A DNA stretch of 32,336 nt from a virus (lineage: Duplodnaviria; Heunggongvirae; Uroviricota; Caudoviricetes; Peduoviridae), in the IMG/VR virus record IMGVR_UViG_2974787824_000001, positions 1 to 32,336 of that record, one strand, 5' to 3'. Each line of letters begins with the position of its first letter. The stretch's first letter is position 1. This document shows positions 3,143 to 32,141 of this stretch, piece after piece. The notes beneath the pieces are model-generated. The model was not told the origin of the DNA. It saw only the letters and a program-made list of their open reading frames with translations, and made no database searches. The position numbers and the translations under genes were made by a program.

Positions 3143-3997
3143 ATGGCAAAAAAAGTCTCAAAATTCTTTCGTATCGGCGTTGAGGGTGACACCTGTGACG
3201 GGCGTGTCATCAGTGCGCAGGATATTCAGGAAATGGCCGAAACCTTTGACCCGCGAGTCTATGGTTGCCGCATTAACCTGGAACATCTGCGCGGCATCCT
3301 GCCTGACGGTATTTTTAAGCGTTATGGCGATGTGGCCGAACTGAAGGCCGAAAAGATTGACGATGATTCGGCGCTGAAAGGCAAATGGGCGCTGTTTGCG
3401 AAAATCACCCCGACCGATGACCTTATCGCGATGAACAAGGCCGCGCAGAAGGTCTACACCTCAATGGAAATTCAGCCGAACTTTGCCAACACCGGCAAAT
3501 GTTATCTGGTGGGGCTGGCCGTCACCGATGACCCGGCAAGCCTCGGCACGGAATACCTGGAATTCTGCCGCACGGCAAAACACAACCCTCTGAACCGCTT
3601 CAAATTAAGCCCTGAAAACCTGATTTCAGTGGCAACGCCTGTTGAGCTGGAATTTGAAGACCTGCCTGAAAGCGTGTTCACCGCCCTGACTGAAAAGGTG
3701 AAATCCATTTTTGGCCGCAAACAGGCCAGCGATGACGCCCGTCTGAATGATGTGCATGAAGCGGTGACCGCTGTTGCTGAACATGTGCAGGAAAAACTGA
3801 GCGCCACTGAGCAGCGCCTCGCAGAGATGGAAACCGCCTTTTCCGCACTTAAGCAGGATGTAGCTGACAGGGCGGATGAAACCAGCCAGGCATTCACCCG
3901 CCTGAAAAACAGTCTCGACCACACCGAAAGTCTGACCCAGCAGCGCCGCAGCAAGGCCACCGGCGGTGGCGGTGACGCCCTGATGACGAACTGCTGA
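3143..3997 (+). CDS. O: Capsid scaffolding protein (P2 gpO-like)
   Basis: ATG at 3143 (MAKKVSKFFRIG...) gives 284 aa, the P2 O length as I recall; first gene of the rightward O-N-M-L capsid operon. Confidence 0.9.
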   Translation: MAKKVSKFFRIGVEGDTCDGRVISAQDIQEMAETFDPRVYGCRINLEHLRGILPDGIFKRYGDVAELKAEKIDDDSALKGKWALFAKITPTDDLIAMNKAAQKVYTSMEIQPNFANTGKCYLVGLAVTDDPASLGTEYLEFCRTAKHNPLNRFKLSPENLISVATPVELEFEDLPESVFTALTEKVKSIFGRKQASDDARLNDVHEAVTAVAEHVQEKLSATEQRLAEMETAFSALKQDVADRADETSQAFTRLKNSLDHTESLTQQRRSKATGGGGDALMTNC

Positions 3998-8468: not shown

Positions 8469-8898
8469 TGCCGTCACGGTGCTGAAAACTAACCCCGATA
8501 TGCTGCGGATATTCGTGGATAACGGGAGTATTGCCTCCACACTGGCGACGTCGCTGTCATTCGAAAAGCGTTACACGCTCAATGTCATTGTGACCGACTT
8601 TACCGGTGATTTTGACCTGCTCATCGTGCCGGTGCTGGCGTGGCTGCGGGAAAATCAGCCAGACATCATGACCACCGACGCAGGCCAGAAAAAGGGCTTC
8701 ACGTTTTATGCAGACATCAACAATGACAGCAGCTTTGATATCAGTATCAGCCTGATGCTGACCGAGCGCACGCTGGTCAGTGAGGTGGACGGTGCGCTGC
8801 ATGTGAAGAATATCCCGGAACCCACGCCGCCGGAGCCGGTCACCCGCCCGATGGAGCTTTATATCAATGGCGAACTGGTGAGCAAGTGGGATGAATGA
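8431..8898 (+). CDS. R: Tail completion protein (P2 gpR-like)
   Basis: 155-aa ORF; sequence and position as in P2 R. Confidence 0.88.
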   Translation: MLKPDSLRRALTDAVTVLKTNPDMLRIFVDNGSIASTLATSLSFEKRYTLNVIVTDFTGDFDLLIVPVLAWLRENQPDIMTTDAGQKKGFTFYADINNDSSFDISISLMLTERTLVSEVDGALHVKNIPEPTPPEPVTRPMELYINGELVSKWDE

Positions 8899-9343
8899 GT
8901 TTAAGCGTTTTGAAGACCGGCTGACCGGACTGATTGAATCGTTGTCACCGTCAGGGCGTCGGAGACTGAGCGCCGAACTGGCGAAGCGCCTGCGGCAGAG
9001 TCAGCAGCGTCGGGTGATGGCACAGAAAGCCCCGGACGGCACACCCTACGCGCCACGCCAGCAGCAGAGCGCCAGAAAAAAGACTGGTCGTGTTAAGCGA
9101 AAAATGTTTGCGAAACTTATCACCAGTCGTTTTTTGCATATCCGCGCCAGCCCGGAACAGGCATCAATGGAGTTTTACGGCGGGAAGTCACCGAAAATCG
9201 CCAGCGTGCATCAGTTCGGTCTGTCGGAAGAAACCCGGAAAGACGGTAAGAAAATTGATTATCCGGCGCGTCCTCTGCTCGGCTTTACCGGTGAGGATGT
9301 GCAGATGATTGAAGAGATTATCCTGGCTCACCTTGAGCGTTAG
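8891..9343 (+). CDS. S: Tail completion protein (P2 gpS-like)
   Basis: 150-aa ORF overlapping the R stop; sequence as in P2 S. Confidence 0.88.
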   Translation: MNEFKRFEDRLTGLIESLSPSGRRRLSAELAKRLRQSQQRRVMAQKAPDGTPYAPRQQQSARKKTGRVKRKMFAKLITSRFLHIRASPEQASMEFYGGKSPKIASVHQFGLSEETRKDGKKIDYPARPLLGFTGEDVQMIEEIILAHLER

Positions 9344-9373
9344 TTTTATCCAGGCAGAGGCTGATGCGCAATT

Positions 9374-9408
9374 AAACATTGAGCGGCTGTGCAGGTCGCT
9401 CAATGTTT
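9374..9408. terminator. Strong hairpin between convergent S and the S/V-locus cargo gene (probable bidirectional terminator)
   Basis: 12-bp perfect inverted repeat AAACATTGAGCG (9374-9385) / CGCTCAATGTTT (9397-9408) with an 11-nt loop, between the S stop (9343) and the convergent minus-strand gene ending at 9415. Confidence 0.5.
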
Positions 9409-9414
9409 AGAGGA

Positions 9415-10200
9415 TTATGAGTGGTTTTTATTTGATGATTTGTATTCTACAACTTTTTTATTGGCGTAAAGGAATTTTGTATATGACAGAAGTATAACCA
9501 GACCTGAAGTGAAATAGACGAGGGATATTATTAATAATGTTTTTCTGTGGCTGTTATTATCTTTAATCTCCTGACTTAACCATTCGGAGTCCTCCTCGTT
9601 TAGCTGTAAGAGCTTATTGCAGGCGATTGCAGGAAGTGTGTCTGTTACAAAAGTGTTCTGCAGTCTCTTGCAATCGGCAATGCTAAAAGCTTTATAGAAC
9701 TTATCTGTTTTATTGTCGGAGAACAAAAGAACCTTGTCATTATAAACATGGTACATCATATTTTTATATGGTATGGCTATAGCATCCTCTACTATGGCAG
9801 ATTGCTCGTTGTGTATGCAACATGCGAAGGTAATATAAAGAATTCCGGCCAGGACTGCACTCATTGTTTTTGTGATGCATGGCGGTTCTGTTATGTCTCC
9901 CCAGAAGCGAGTAAGGAAAAAATCCGATGTTTTTAGTTTTCCATCAATCAACCCCTGCTGTATCATTTTCACATCTTTGATGCCTGATACATTGATTCCG
10001 TTAATTATTTTAAATAGTTGAATGTCGCGCCACTCGCGGTCCAGTCTTTTTAATTTTTTATCTGAATATCCAAATTTGAAATAATGTGCAATAAGCCTCA
10101 TAAGGTTACTTTTACCAAAGCTAAAAAATGCTAATACTACAAAGACCAAAAGATACAAGACGATTAGCTCCCACACATTAGTCACATTATAGCTGACCAT
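9415..10200 (-). CDS. Hypothetical membrane protein; AT-rich moron at the S/V (P2 orf30) position
   Basis: 261-aa leftward ORF between S and V. Hydrophobic stretches near the N-terminus (LIVLYLLVFVVLAFFSF), middle (MSAVLAGILYITFACCI) and C-terminus (TLLIISLVYFTSGLVILLSY). Visibly AT-rich with A/T-ending codons, unlike neighbours. No motif recognised. Confidence 0.7.
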   Translation of the reverse strand: MVSYNVTNVWELIVLYLLVFVVLAFFSFGKSNLMRLIAHYFKFGYSDKKLKRLDREWRDIQLFKIINGINVSGIKDVKMIQQGLIDGKLKTSDFFLTRFWGDITEPPCITKTMSAVLAGILYITFACCIHNEQSAIVEDAIAIPYKNMMYHVYNDKVLLFSDNKTDKFYKAFSIADCKRLQNTFVTDTLPAIACNKLLQLNEEDSEWLSQEIKDNNSHRKTLLIISLVYFTSGLVILLSYTKFLYANKKVVEYKSSNKNHS

Positions 10201-10283
10201 TACGCTCTCCTTGAATGTTGTCTGGTGGTTCTACAAATGAATCCAGATAGCATAACTTTTATATATTGTGCAATCTCACATGC

Positions 10284-10919
10284 ATGAACACTCTCGCAAA
10301 TATTCAGGAACTCGCGCGCGCACTGCGCAACATGATTCGTACTGGCCTTGTCGTCGAAACCGACCTTAACGCCGGTCGCTGCCGTGTGCAGACCGGCGGC
10401 ATGTGCACCGACTGGCTTCAGTGGCTGACACATCGTGCCGGGCGTTCGCGCACATGGTGGGCACCTTCCGTGGGGGAACAGGTGCTGATTCTGGCCGTGG
10501 GCGGTGAACTCGACACGGCGTTCGTTCTGCCGGGGATTTATTCCGGCGATAACCCCGCGCCGTCTGCGTCGGCGGATGCCCTGCACATACGTTTCCCTGA
10601 CGGGGCGGTGATTGAGTATGAACCTGAAACCAGTGCACTGATGGTAAGCGGAATTAAAACGGCCAGCGTGACGGCTTCTGATTCTGTTACCGCCACGGTG
10701 CCGGTAGTCATGGTGAAAGCGTCAACCCGCATCACCCTGGACACCCCGGAGGTGGTCTGCACCAACAGACTGATTACCGGCACGCTGGAAGTACAGAAGG
10801 GCGGGACGATGCGCGGCAACATTGAACACACCGGCGGTGAACTCTCATCAAACGGTAAGGTACTGCATACCCATAAACACCCCGGCGACAGCGGCGGCAC
10901 AACCGGGGGACCTCTATGA
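10284..10919 (+). CDS. V: Baseplate spike / assembly protein (P2 gpV-like)
   Basis: Start at the internal Met (MNTLANIQELARALRNMIRTG...) gives about 211 aa; sequence recognised as P2 V. Confidence 0.9.
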   Translation: MNTLANIQELARALRNMIRTGLVVETDLNAGRCRVQTGGMCTDWLQWLTHRAGRSRTWWAPSVGEQVLILAVGGELDTAFVLPGIYSGDNPAPSASADALHIRFPDGAVIEYEPETSALMVSGIKTASVTASDSVTATVPVVMVKASTRITLDTPEVVCTNRLITGTLEVQKGGTMRGNIEHTGGELSSNGKVLHTHKHPGDSGGTTGGPL

Positions 10920-15933: not shown

Positions 15934-17283
15934 TTATTCCGTTTTATATATCATAGTAGTCGATTGGAGAATATAGTTTCTGGGAATGTATTCTTCAAAG
16001 TGTTCGTCCTTTTTAAATACATGAACTACATTTGGGAATAATTGATAGTCAACAGGGTGTATAGCGTTTGGATTATGGTACATGTATATGGCTGTACACC
16101 ATGGTTCTTGATAGTTAGGGTCACTTACATCGGCTGAAAATGGATGTGGGTCTGCATCCTGATCAGTTTTAACACCACTGACGTACACTTTGAATCCACT
16201 CGCCTCTACACCTGCAAGAATTCCCATCCGGTTAAACTTAGGTATGGTTGCTTGAGTAGTGAGTAAAACGGCAGAAACATAATTATTTTGTTCTGAGCCA
16301 AAAAAGTTCGACTTGATACTTCTATTTTCATCTGTATGTCTTTCAATAGAAATGCCTGACTCAATATCAATCCCGTACAAATAGCTATGCAAGGCTTCGC
16401 TTGAGAAGGCCATGGACATTCTTTTTGAATAATCCTGCATTGCTATGACAAATGGTTTGTTCTTTGTATGGTTGAGTTCCCAGTAATGAACTTTCTCTGG
16501 CTCAGGGCAATGCCGGACTTTTTTTAATAAACTTCTTGCAAACTTAAAAGGCATGACATTTAGAACATGTTTTCTTAATTCATCCATCTGCTCATCGTTA
16601 ATGACTTTTCTTTCAAGAGGGGCTTCTGCTTCAGCAATGCTTACAGCCTCTACAGCAATTTCCACTCCAAATTTAGATAGCAGAAAATCTGGTTGATTGT
16701 ATTCTCTATTCATTTCAAAGTCGAGTTCATAAAATACAGCGTTCAAATATAATTCAAATAGCCTTGAATTAAATGCATCACTTTGAAAATCCCTTATAAA
16801 TATTCCATCAGGATCTTTGAACCAGTATGCAAGTTCCTCAAGAACAATATATGCAGGGAAATGAAGAGGGTCTTCGAGGAGCATTTTTATATAAACATTC
16901 CTTTTTTTCTCTGGGACTTTACTCAAGAATAATGAAAAAGGTTTGGTTGATTCATCGCCTTGCATGAATGTACCGTTTTGGTGCTGCGCCAGCATCTTTG
17001 GTATGTCATCGTTTAAATTATTAAGCAAGACATCCATTGAGTCAAATGAAGCCAAGACGTTTATTGCTCTGAATTTTTTATCTAAATCCCGACCCAATAC
17101 TATTGCGTTAAAATCTTTATCAATATTGCATATGATTATTGTGGATAACAATGTTATCCCATTCCCCTCATATTTAAACCAGCGTATCTCCTCAGAAAAT
17201 GTCTTAAGGTAAGGTGAGCGACCGTAAAAATAAATATCAAATTGTTCTTTGCTGATCTCACTGAAGTGTAATCCTGCGTTCAT
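15934..17283 (-). CDS. Hypothetical protein; AT-rich cargo gene at the G/FI (Z/fun) position - candidate anti-phage defence protein
   Basis: 449-aa leftward ORF interrupting rightward late genes, flanked by about 400 bp and 470 bp of non-coding DNA; AT-rich. No Walker A, HUH, reverse-transcriptase or obvious nuclease motif seen by eye. Confidence 0.75.
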   Translation of the reverse strand: MNAGLHFSEISKEQFDIYFYGRSPYLKTFSEEIRWFKYEGNGITLLSTIIICNIDKDFNAIVLGRDLDKKFRAINVLASFDSMDVLLNNLNDDIPKMLAQHQNGTFMQGDESTKPFSLFLSKVPEKKRNVYIKMLLEDPLHFPAYIVLEELAYWFKDPDGIFIRDFQSDAFNSRLFELYLNAVFYELDFEMNREYNQPDFLLSKFGVEIAVEAVSIAEAEAPLERKVINDEQMDELRKHVLNVMPFKFARSLLKKVRHCPEPEKVHYWELNHTKNKPFVIAMQDYSKRMSMAFSSEALHSYLYGIDIESGISIERHTDENRSIKSNFFGSEQNNYVSAVLLTTQATIPKFNRMGILAGVEASGFKVYVSGVKTDQDADPHPFSADVSDPNYQEPWCTAIYMYHNPNAIHPVDYQLFPNVVHVFKKDEHFEEYIPRNYILQSTTMIYKTE

Positions 17284-31199: not shown

Positions 31200-32141
31200 T
31201 TAAGTTAATTTTAATGAATGGTACTCTATCGAGCTGATTGTAGATGCGATATATTTACGATCATTTACAGAGAGTATTGCCGCTAGTAGACGACATACCA
31301 GAGCCTGCATTTGTAGCAATATATCGCTACCATATTGACAATCATTGATACTAGAGAAACCAAGCGGTTGCCCATTAAAAATGGCTTCATGAAAATTATC
31401 ATTGCGTATAACTGAAACATTACATTCATCTGTTGCCCATGACGGGATTTTTACACCGTAATTTTCGCACATCCAATATACTCTATTTTGATGAGATGGT
31501 TTTTTCTCTTTAATGACTTTATCCCTTTCATCCCATGCTATAGCAAAACAGCAATCAAGAGCCATATAAAGATACTGGAATTTCTCAAAGGAAAGGTATA
31601 GTGGGTTATGTGATAGGAATAGGGAGTGTATCACCGCAGCTATTCTTTTAATGGAGCGATCATCTTTTTGTTTGTCTTTTATATAGTTAAGTGCTAGCTC
31701 TATTACTTCTTTTTCAGAGCATCCAACGAGAATAAAGTCAGTTAACTTAGTGGGCTTGATAGTGGTTGCATCAAGAAAACCAGCGTCAGTGGTTGTCAAT
31801 CTTATACCCTTGAAAAAAGAGAGGCACCACACAACAAAGTTGAGAGTTTCTAACGAGGATGTGTTTTTTAATTTTAGTGTGTGCGTTTTGGGCATGCCGA
31901 ATACTCGGTAACTATAAGGCATTGTGCATGTGTCACCATTAAGGTTATATACCTTTCGATTCCCAGGGTATATCCAACCATTAACAACGTTTTTATCATT
32001 GTTAATACGTTCCACTTTCTCAATAAGACCGGGTAAAGTACGCAAAGAAAATTGTTCAGTCTCAATGTTAACTTCTACTGGATAGTATCCAAACTCCGAA
32101 ATAATCTCATTTGGTTGCTGTTCATCAACTTCACCTTGCAT
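31200..32141 (-). CDS. Hypothetical protein; AT-rich cargo gene at the tin/old position - candidate anti-phage defence protein
   Basis: 313-aa leftward ORF next to the right genome end, where P2 carries tin and old. AT-rich with A/T-biased codons. No Walker A motif, so not an Old-type ATPase; no motif recognised by eye. Confidence 0.75.
   Translation of the reverse strand: MQGEVDEQQPNEIISEFGYYPVEVNIETEQFSLRTLPGLIEKVERINNDKNVVNGWIYPGNRKVYNLNGDTCTMPYSYRVFGMPKTHTLKLKNTSSLETLNFVVWCLSFFKGIRLTTTDAGFLDATTIKPTKLTDFILVGCSEKEVIELALNYIKDKQKDDRSIKRIAAVIHSLFLSHNPLYLSFEKFQYLYMALDCCFAIAWDERDKVIKEKKPSHQNRVYWMCENYGVKIPSWATDECNVSVIRNDNFHEAIFNGQPLGFSSINDCQYGSDILLQMQALVCRLLAAILSVNDRKYIASTISSIEYHSLKLT

Follow-up and report, generated by a model that had tools for sequence, protein, structure and literature searches.

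An ortholog of P2 orf30 between tail genes S and V of a P2-like Yersinia phage, a predicted inner-membrane protein with a possible anti-phage function at the cell envelope

Phage P2 is a textbook temperate phage, and its AT-rich accessory genes old, tin and fun, which were discovered by their exclusion phenotypes in classical P2 genetics, gave rise to the view of prophages as defenders of their hosts. Small membrane proteins by which related phages are kept from delivering their DNA are also encoded by other phages, including T4 Imm, HK97 gp15 and lactococcal Sie2009. SieA of phage P22 is a prophage-borne, single-gene, multi-pass inner-membrane protein, encoded antisense beside the late structural genes, which blocks DNA injection and whose sequence types are less than 30% identical (PMC10883804). 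In P2-like phages, the place of orf30 is one of three loci with horizontally acquired genes (PMC3091744; PMC6823313). Earlier work dealt with the old/tin and Z/fun loci only (PMC9122126; PMC9519451), and a 2026 survey of defence hotspots in P2-like prophages listed GpA-GpQ, int-att and a place "within the tail genes" downstream of GpL (PMC13586616). Here, we analyzed a 32,336-nucleotide (nt) stretch of DNA from a virus of the Peduoviridae (IMG/VR record IMGVR_UViG_2974787824_000001), referred to over its whole length as the window. We report that its gene at 9415-10200 on the minus strand, located between tail genes S and V, is an ortholog of P2 orf30 whose 261-amino-acid (aa) product is predicted to span the inner membrane three times and may shield the lysogen against other phages at the envelope.

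An earlier note, made from the letters of the window, had described a leftward AT-rich gene for a 261-aa protein at the P2 orf30 position. The open reading frame (ORF) at 9415-10200 (-) bears this out, and the reference to position turned out to be an understatement. The window protein is 80% identical in amino acid sequence to P2 Orf30 (AAD03281, GenBank AF063097) over 261 of 261 residues (BLASTP, E = 5e-160) and matches phrog_2407 over positions 1-261 of 261 (E = 3.8e-136). At the nucleotide level, the 940-bp query was matched at 100% by Yersinia phage VB-YPM-4 (ON146439) and at about 90% by P2, and P2 annotations map onto the window throughout at a constant offset of 24 nt. Both sequence and synteny (antisense orientation, gpS-gpV location, hairpin and pV region) place the gene in the P2 Orf30 orthologous group. 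It is an ortholog of P2 orf30 itself, beyond a shared position. P2 Orf30 likewise has 261 aa, lies antisense between S and V and is accompanied by the corresponding terminator hairpin and control region of pV. The window allele, which unlike that of P2 comes from a Yersinia pestis phage record, differs at 20% of residues, and the differences cluster in the first two predicted transmembrane (TM) segments and in the first half of the predicted periplasmic loop. The gene is thus already known, and the present result is a re-identification together with a plausible functional guess. A literature search for orf30, DUF6216 and PF19723 found no functional study, and orf30 is marked "nonessential" in the sequence record of P2.

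Comparison with relatives whose slot is empty defined the cassette that carries the gene. Homology to three such relatives (L101, L108 and L021), whose V genes are 97-99% identical, extends to 9345, two bases beyond the S stop codon, and starts again with the V ATG at 10284, so the mobile unit is a 938-bp segment at 9346-10283. The boundaries of 9344-10283 drawn by the earlier note were therefore almost exact, and its proposal of a moron agrees with the breakpoints of this horizontally exchanged unit: S and V, which are neighbors in close relatives, are separated here by the insert, and the base composition of the insert is deviant. The G+C content is 36.0% in the ORF, 37.0% in 9344-10283 and 51.7% in the window, and in a sliding profile the trough of 0.35-0.40 is restricted to 9250-10300. 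The cassette fills the S-V slot and brings with it a terminator hairpin, orf30 and one version of the divergent pV promoter region. Its flanks were identified by Pfam matches: on the left, tail completion protein gpS (8891-9343, +; PF05069, E = 4.9e-44), and on the right, baseplate spike protein gpV (10284-10919, +; PF04717, PF18715 and PF18946, the Apex motif). A Shine-Dalgarno sequence, AAGGAG, can be read at 10207-10212 (-), 6 nt 5' of the ATG at 10200-10198, and is kept in orthologous cassettes. The three empty-slot relatives have an unrelated 64-bp GC-rich S-V spacer (at about 3432-3500) with its own GC-rich hairpin (GCCGCCGG...CCGGCGGC). This spacer is without the P2-type Ogr site of the orf30 cassette, so the expression signals of V vary with the state of the slot.

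The hairpin lies between the convergent S and orf30 genes and starts 6 nt past the orf30 stop codon. Its strength was described correctly by the earlier note, but its arms, given there as 12 bp, are perfect over 13 bp (9373-9385 and 9397-9409, together 9373-9409) and enclose an 11-nt loop. As RNA it folds at -28 kcal/mol on the plus strand (z = -5.4) and at -17.5 kcal/mol on the minus strand (z = -3.95), and none of 200 shuffled sequences folded as well (0/200). It coincides with the P2-annotated 'putative rho-independent terminator for O operon' (P2 9397-9433, window 9373-9409) and probably terminates both the S-side and the orf30 transcripts. Inspection of the sequence revealed no U-tract directly after the hairpin on either strand, a consensus terminator scan did not call it, and an Rfam search of the window gave no match. 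The divergent orf30-V intergenic region, 83 bp at 10201-10283, had been regarded as the promoter of the gene. It is mainly the Ogr-dependent control region of the late promoter pV: the P2 'activator binding site; activation of pV promoter' (P2 10239-10266) corresponds, with the 24-nt offset, to a putative Ogr site at 10215-10242 (+), and the region of this site is near-identical among orf30 cassettes. The orf30 promoter must also be contained in these 83 bp. Since P2 annotation places both the O-operon terminator and the pV promoter here, orf30 appears to sit between two late transcription units, the O operon and the V unit, and does not interrupt a late operon as had been proposed.

Hydrophobic segments near both ends and in the middle of the protein had been noted before, and we found three by Kyte-Doolittle analysis, at about 9-29, 108-130 and 220-241, with 19-residue means of up to 2.5, 1.75 and 2.2, respectively, all of them over 1.6. 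The predicted layout comprises TM1 (about 9-29), a cytoplasmic loop 1 of about 78 aa (30-107), TM2 (108-130), a periplasmic loop 2 of about 88 aa (131-219), TM3 (220-241) and a basic C-tail. This orientation follows the positive-inside rule across 25 aligned family members. No Lys or Arg occurs in the N-terminal 8 residues, loop 1 is net positive in 25/25 members (mean +4.7) and the C-tail in 20/25, and loop 2 is neutral. In addition, loop 2 has exactly two aligned Cys residues in every one of the 25 members (Cys177 and Cys194 in the window protein). We infer a topology with the N-terminus out, loop 1 in, loop 2 out and the C-terminus in, with a disulfide in the periplasm. By these predictions of TM-length helices and charge distribution, the product is very probably an integral inner-membrane protein, as had been suggested.

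An AlphaFold2 (AF2) model agreed with these three segments. Built from the 25-sequence family alignment, it reached a predicted local distance difference test score (pLDDT) of 81.7 and a predicted template modeling score of 0.69; five close orthologs alone gave a pLDDT of 48. Modeled helices at 7-40, 109-134 and 202-260 contain the three TM segments. In the model, the cytoplasmic domain (48-101) is helical, and the periplasmic domain is composed of a four-stranded sheet (141-173) and two short helices that bear the Cys pair. One divergent family member (P0017, L015 66-752) is located beside a gene for a DsbA-family thioredoxin on a short metagenomic contig, and this neighbor may be relevant to the conserved periplasmic Cys pair.

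Evolutionary rates were then compared along the gene and with its neighbors. The ratio of nonsynonymous to synonymous substitution rates (dN/dS) of orf30 was 0.40-0.46 in 19 distinct orthologs. By region, it was 0.26 in loop 1 (30-107), 0.20 in the second half of loop 2 (190-219), 0.15 in the C-tail, 0.15-0.35 in the soluble loops overall and 0.8-1.3 in the three TM segments. In the same phages, dN was 0.10-0.13 for orf30 versus 0-0.018 for S and V, an approximately tenfold gap (0-0.015 for gpS and its orthologs). In codons 108-189, from TM2 to the middle of loop 2, dS among the orthologs was raised to 0.39-0.46, about twice that of the rest of the gene (0.07-0.32), which suggests recombinational mosaicism inside orf30 through exchange of this segment. 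The intact cassette was found in 460 of 5,426 complete Escherichia coli genomes, at 483 places and with 80-100% nucleotide identity; given 1,812 places with a P2-type V in complete E. coli genomes, approximately one quarter of P2-type prophage copies carry orf30. We conclude that orf30 is a real, constrained and fast-diverging coding gene.

More distant relatives were recovered by an exhaustive profile search, which yielded 42 representatives, compared with only four close clusters by a word-indexed search. About 20 of the 42 are full-length (250-270 aa) at 18-33% identity, and the architecture is colinear in homologs down to 18-20% identity. Gly68, Gly87, Cys194 and Ile212 are invariant in the family, and Gln61, Asp76, Cys177, Asn247 and Lys254 nearly so. 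Searches with tblastn of the distant members against sequenced phages returned only orf30 orthologs. The window protein itself gave no match to the model of DUF6216 (PF19723), for which the gathering threshold is 27.3 bits. Nevertheless, nine of the 25 aligned members matched the DUF6216 model colinearly (E <= 0.1), among them P0034 (24.3 bits) and P0024, which scored 28.9 bits against the gathering value of 27.3 over model positions 10-265 of 270. P0024 occupies an S-V slot and was found by the Orf30 profile at E = 2.8e-11. Like Orf30, DUF6216 proteins have about 250-270 aa and a colinear architecture. On these profile matches, Orf30 is a divergent relative of DUF6216 at the superfamily level, linked through intermediates only. 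In the literature, DUF6216 is mentioned in one unrelated paper.

The content of the S-V slot was assessed in the 160 best-matching gpV loci (80 from species-representative genomes and 80 from IMG/VR). Three states were observed: an empty slot (gap of less than 50 bp; 62 of the 139 loci in which S and V are both present), a member of the Orf30 family, invariably in antisense orientation, and other AT-rich cargo belonging to more than 50 unrelated protein clusters. Orf30-type cassettes are 768-970 bp long and contain no other gene. In all loci that hold both the family gene and V (39/39), the two are divergent and at most 400 nt apart. Their divergences correlate (Spearman 0.78), and at loci where V retains 75-85% identity, the family gene is down to about 25%. 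We had considered that orf30 is ordinary swap cargo unrelated to its neighbors; this was rejected because family divergence tracks V divergence. The gene looks like a long-resident, mostly co-inherited and very fast-diverging element that is often lost or replaced. In two loci of one lineage (L182 8800-10440 and L183 4199-5839), the family gene lies beside V, and a gene with an ORF6N domain and two small ORFs are on the S side, a layout from which it follows that cargo joins on the S-proximal side and the family gene stays V-adjacent.

Several of the other occupants are recognized or candidate defence genes. They include Septu PtuA followed by an HNH protein (L084, E = 1.9e-143 for PtuA), a type-V retron reverse transcriptase (L072, E = 7e-156), PDC-S33 (L022), PDC-S59 (L116), a caspase-like protein (L048), a HEC-04-type ATPase (L096) and, by eye, an apparent C5-methyltransferase/restriction pair (L087). 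These slots come from prophages of Rahnella, Brenneria, Escherichia, Pseudescherichia, Serratia and others. By these matches, the S-V slot is in effect a further defence hotspot of P2-like phages. Three enterobacterial P2-like segments with gpV identities of 76-85% were found in assemblies labeled as a Firmicute (L024 and L050, Vagococcus sp. WN89Y) and a Bacteroidota species (L054, Chryseobacterium sp. 18061), and these assemblies are probably contaminated or mislabeled.

Members of the family also occur at other places. P0006, P0008, P0025, P0024 and P0022 are located beside V in S-V slots of P2-like prophages and run antisense. P0034 lies shortly after the portal gene, toward the old/tin hotspot, and Pantoea members directly follow int at the prophage edge. 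With members at S-V, at the int edge and at the portal side, the family occupies three recognized defence hotspots. P0051 is chromosomal; its neighbors are LysE and genes of biosynthesis, and no phage gene was called within 9 kb. In Pantoea (L003 8001-8777 and L006 8001-8777), one family gene shares 8 nt with the 3' end of a 186/P2-type integrase gene. In a second strain, at the same chromosomal site (acetyltransferase, aroF-tyrA), only a 79-aa ORF precedes the family gene and no integrase is called; this locus could be the remnant of a decayed prophage.

Two additional AT-rich genes (G+C about 0.36 each) were detected in the window. One is located in the Z/fun slot between tail genes (15934-17283, -) and encodes a 449-aa protein with a full-length PADLOC match to PD-T7-1 (E = 1.5e-156), a weaker match to PD-T7-5 and no Pfam match. 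The other lies in an island at the right end (31200-32141, -), downstream of gpA at the old/tin hotspot position; its 313-aa ORF has no PADLOC or Pfam match and is a candidate uncharacterized defence gene.

With SieA, Orf30 shares the antisense single-gene arrangement, a multi-pass inner-membrane product (predicted for Orf30) and very divergent sequence types, and SieA offers the working model of how DNA delivery could be stopped at the inner membrane. Orf30 differs in length (164 aa in SieA versus 261 aa) and in its Cys-paired periplasmic domain, which is not described for SieA; the function of SieA has been demonstrated, whereas that of Orf30 is a proposal. T4 Imm, HK97 gp15 and Sie2009 have fewer TM helices than Orf30 and are not known to be similar to it. 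The defence morons of P2 hotspots (old/tin, Z/fun and PD-T7-1) are, like Orf30, AT-rich swapped cargo in fixed slots (PMC9122126, PMC9519451, PMC13586616), and the PD-T7-1 homolog in the Z/fun slot of the window has the low G+C content and antisense orientation of orf30. However, those morons have shown anti-phage activity and are mostly cytoplasmic enzymes, none of which is matched by Orf30 in PADLOC. Unlike typical swap cargo, Orf30 has also largely co-diverged with its neighbor V.

The earlier note had suggested superinfection exclusion (Sie) or modification of the host surface as the function of the gene, which is reasonable. We favor the reading that Orf30 is a prophage-expressed Sie-type block that protects the lysogen from other phages at the envelope, and give it a probability of roughly 0.4. 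The prophage would express Orf30 in the inner membrane of the lysogen, the periplasmic domain would meet the DNA-delivery apparatus of an incoming phage there, entry of the incoming genome would fail and the lysogen would be protected. An anti-phage role, whether by exclusion or by abortive infection, is taken as somewhat better than an even chance. It is strengthened by the defence cargo of the S-V slot and by the family members at two other P2 defence hotspots, and supported by the PD-T7-1 homolog in the Z/fun slot of this window. In addition, a dN approximately ten times that of S and V, and a family that is so divergent where V is well conserved, are arms-race-like. The "nonessential" label in P2 and the many empty slots (62/139) indicate that Orf30 is dispensable for the phage.

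Several observations weigh against an exclusion function. The function of Orf30 is given as unknown in the literature (PMC3091744). The association with the slot is weak evidence, as many slot genes are unannotated. The window protein had no domain match in Pfam or NCBIfam and matched 0 families of PADLOC-DB 2.0 at E <= 1; searches of PDB sequences, run with the window protein or the family profile as query, had no hit under E = 0.1, and a structure search of the AF2 model against PDB and BFVD gave no significant match. Homology to P22 SieA was rejected upon hhalign comparison with the family profile (probability 0.2%, E = 0.27). With regard to the presumed expression from the prophage, a promoter scan did not find a sigma-70 consensus on the minus strand at 10201-10400, only a TATAAA with a poor -35 was seen by eye upstream of orf30, and an AT-rich gene of this kind may be open to H-NS silencing. 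Moreover, no exclusion phenotype is known for orf30 from classical P2 genetics, so any target of Orf30 would lie outside the standard coliphages of that era.

A different anti-phage mechanism is conceivable in which Orf30 is an abortive-infection effector that senses infection, depolarizes or permeabilizes the inner membrane and kills the lysogen before progeny are made. The hotspot and association evidence applies to it equally, and TM proteins of known defence systems are usually suicide effectors (PMC9122126). The near-neutral TM segments (dN/dS 0.8-1.3) next to a conserved cytoplasmic loop (0.26) could likewise fit a sensor joined to a membrane-disrupting module. However, the gene stands alone in cassettes of 768-970 bp, which leaves no partner sensor or antitoxin; the structure search provided no recognizable pore or channel fold for the three TM helices; and the two conserved Cys residues, together with a beta domain that evolves fast, suggest that recognition is periplasmic. 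We consider an abortive-infection effector unlikely. Envelope exclusion appears to fit better a stand-alone protein whose fastest-evolving soluble part is predicted to be periplasmic.

Equally unlikely, in our estimate, is a role of Orf30 in lysogenic conversion or host fitness unrelated to phages, such as envelope modification, transport, stress tolerance or colonization. A membrane protein with a predicted periplasmic domain, carried by 464 of the 5,426 complete E. coli genomes and by about one quarter of their P2-type prophage copies, and with a chromosomal relative near LysE (P0051), would be compatible with such a role. On the other hand, no enzymatic or transporter domain was found in Orf30, the soluble domains of which have only about 80-90 aa, and very fast divergence tied to one position of the phage genome fits conflict better. 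P2 accessory loci have also been reported to carry defence genes, not virulence or resistance genes (PMC13586616).

The link with V raises the question of whether Orf30 serves the phage itself, by helping or timing the spike and baseplate, in lysis, or by blocking re-adsorption of progeny, in which case it may be expressed late. Divergent adjacency to V in 39/39 loci, the shared Ogr-controlled intergenic region, the correlated divergence (0.78) and the V-side location of the family gene in multi-gene slots are all in line with this proposal. However, orf30 is nonessential in P2 and absent from many P2-like phages with a 97-99% identical V, its orientation is opposite to that of the late operons, and some family members are not near V but next to int or to the portal gene. 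We therefore regard a life-cycle accessory as improbable, more so than a suicide effector or a host-fitness factor. A non-functional AT-rich spacer whose ORF is accidental or in decay, for which the lack of a database domain match and a relatively high dN/dS (0.4) could be cited, is effectively refuted by an ORF that is intact in 460 E. coli genomes, loop dN/dS of 0.15-0.35, 42 colinear homolog representatives with invariant Gly and Cys residues, a confident AF2 model and a strong Shine-Dalgarno sequence.

With regard to the searched literature, new points are the link to DUF6216, the constant place of the family gene beside V, the two Cys of the predicted periplasmic loop and the defence genes among the slot cargo. 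In P2, orf30 is the remaining accessory gene of this AT-rich kind in the late region that has no assigned function. If envelope exclusion by Orf30 is true, a 30-year-old orphan gene would be explained, a DUF family would gain a function, and defence-finding tools, which now miss Orf30, would gain a single-gene membrane system. Since P2-like phages, among them this one and L-413C, are used in diagnostics and therapy of Yersinia pestis, a gene that alters the susceptibility of lysogens would be of relevance there. More tentatively, and with doubts greater than those about exclusion by Orf30 itself, Orf30 and its DUF6216-like relatives might represent a widespread, unrecognized family of single-gene inner-membrane anti-phage proteins, ancient beside V, in which a disulfide-stabilized periplasmic domain and the DNA-delivery machinery of competitors (possibly other contractile-tailed P2-like phages) are locked in an arms race. 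If this were true, the S-V slot would be the third functional immunity locus of P2, along with old/tin and Z/fun.

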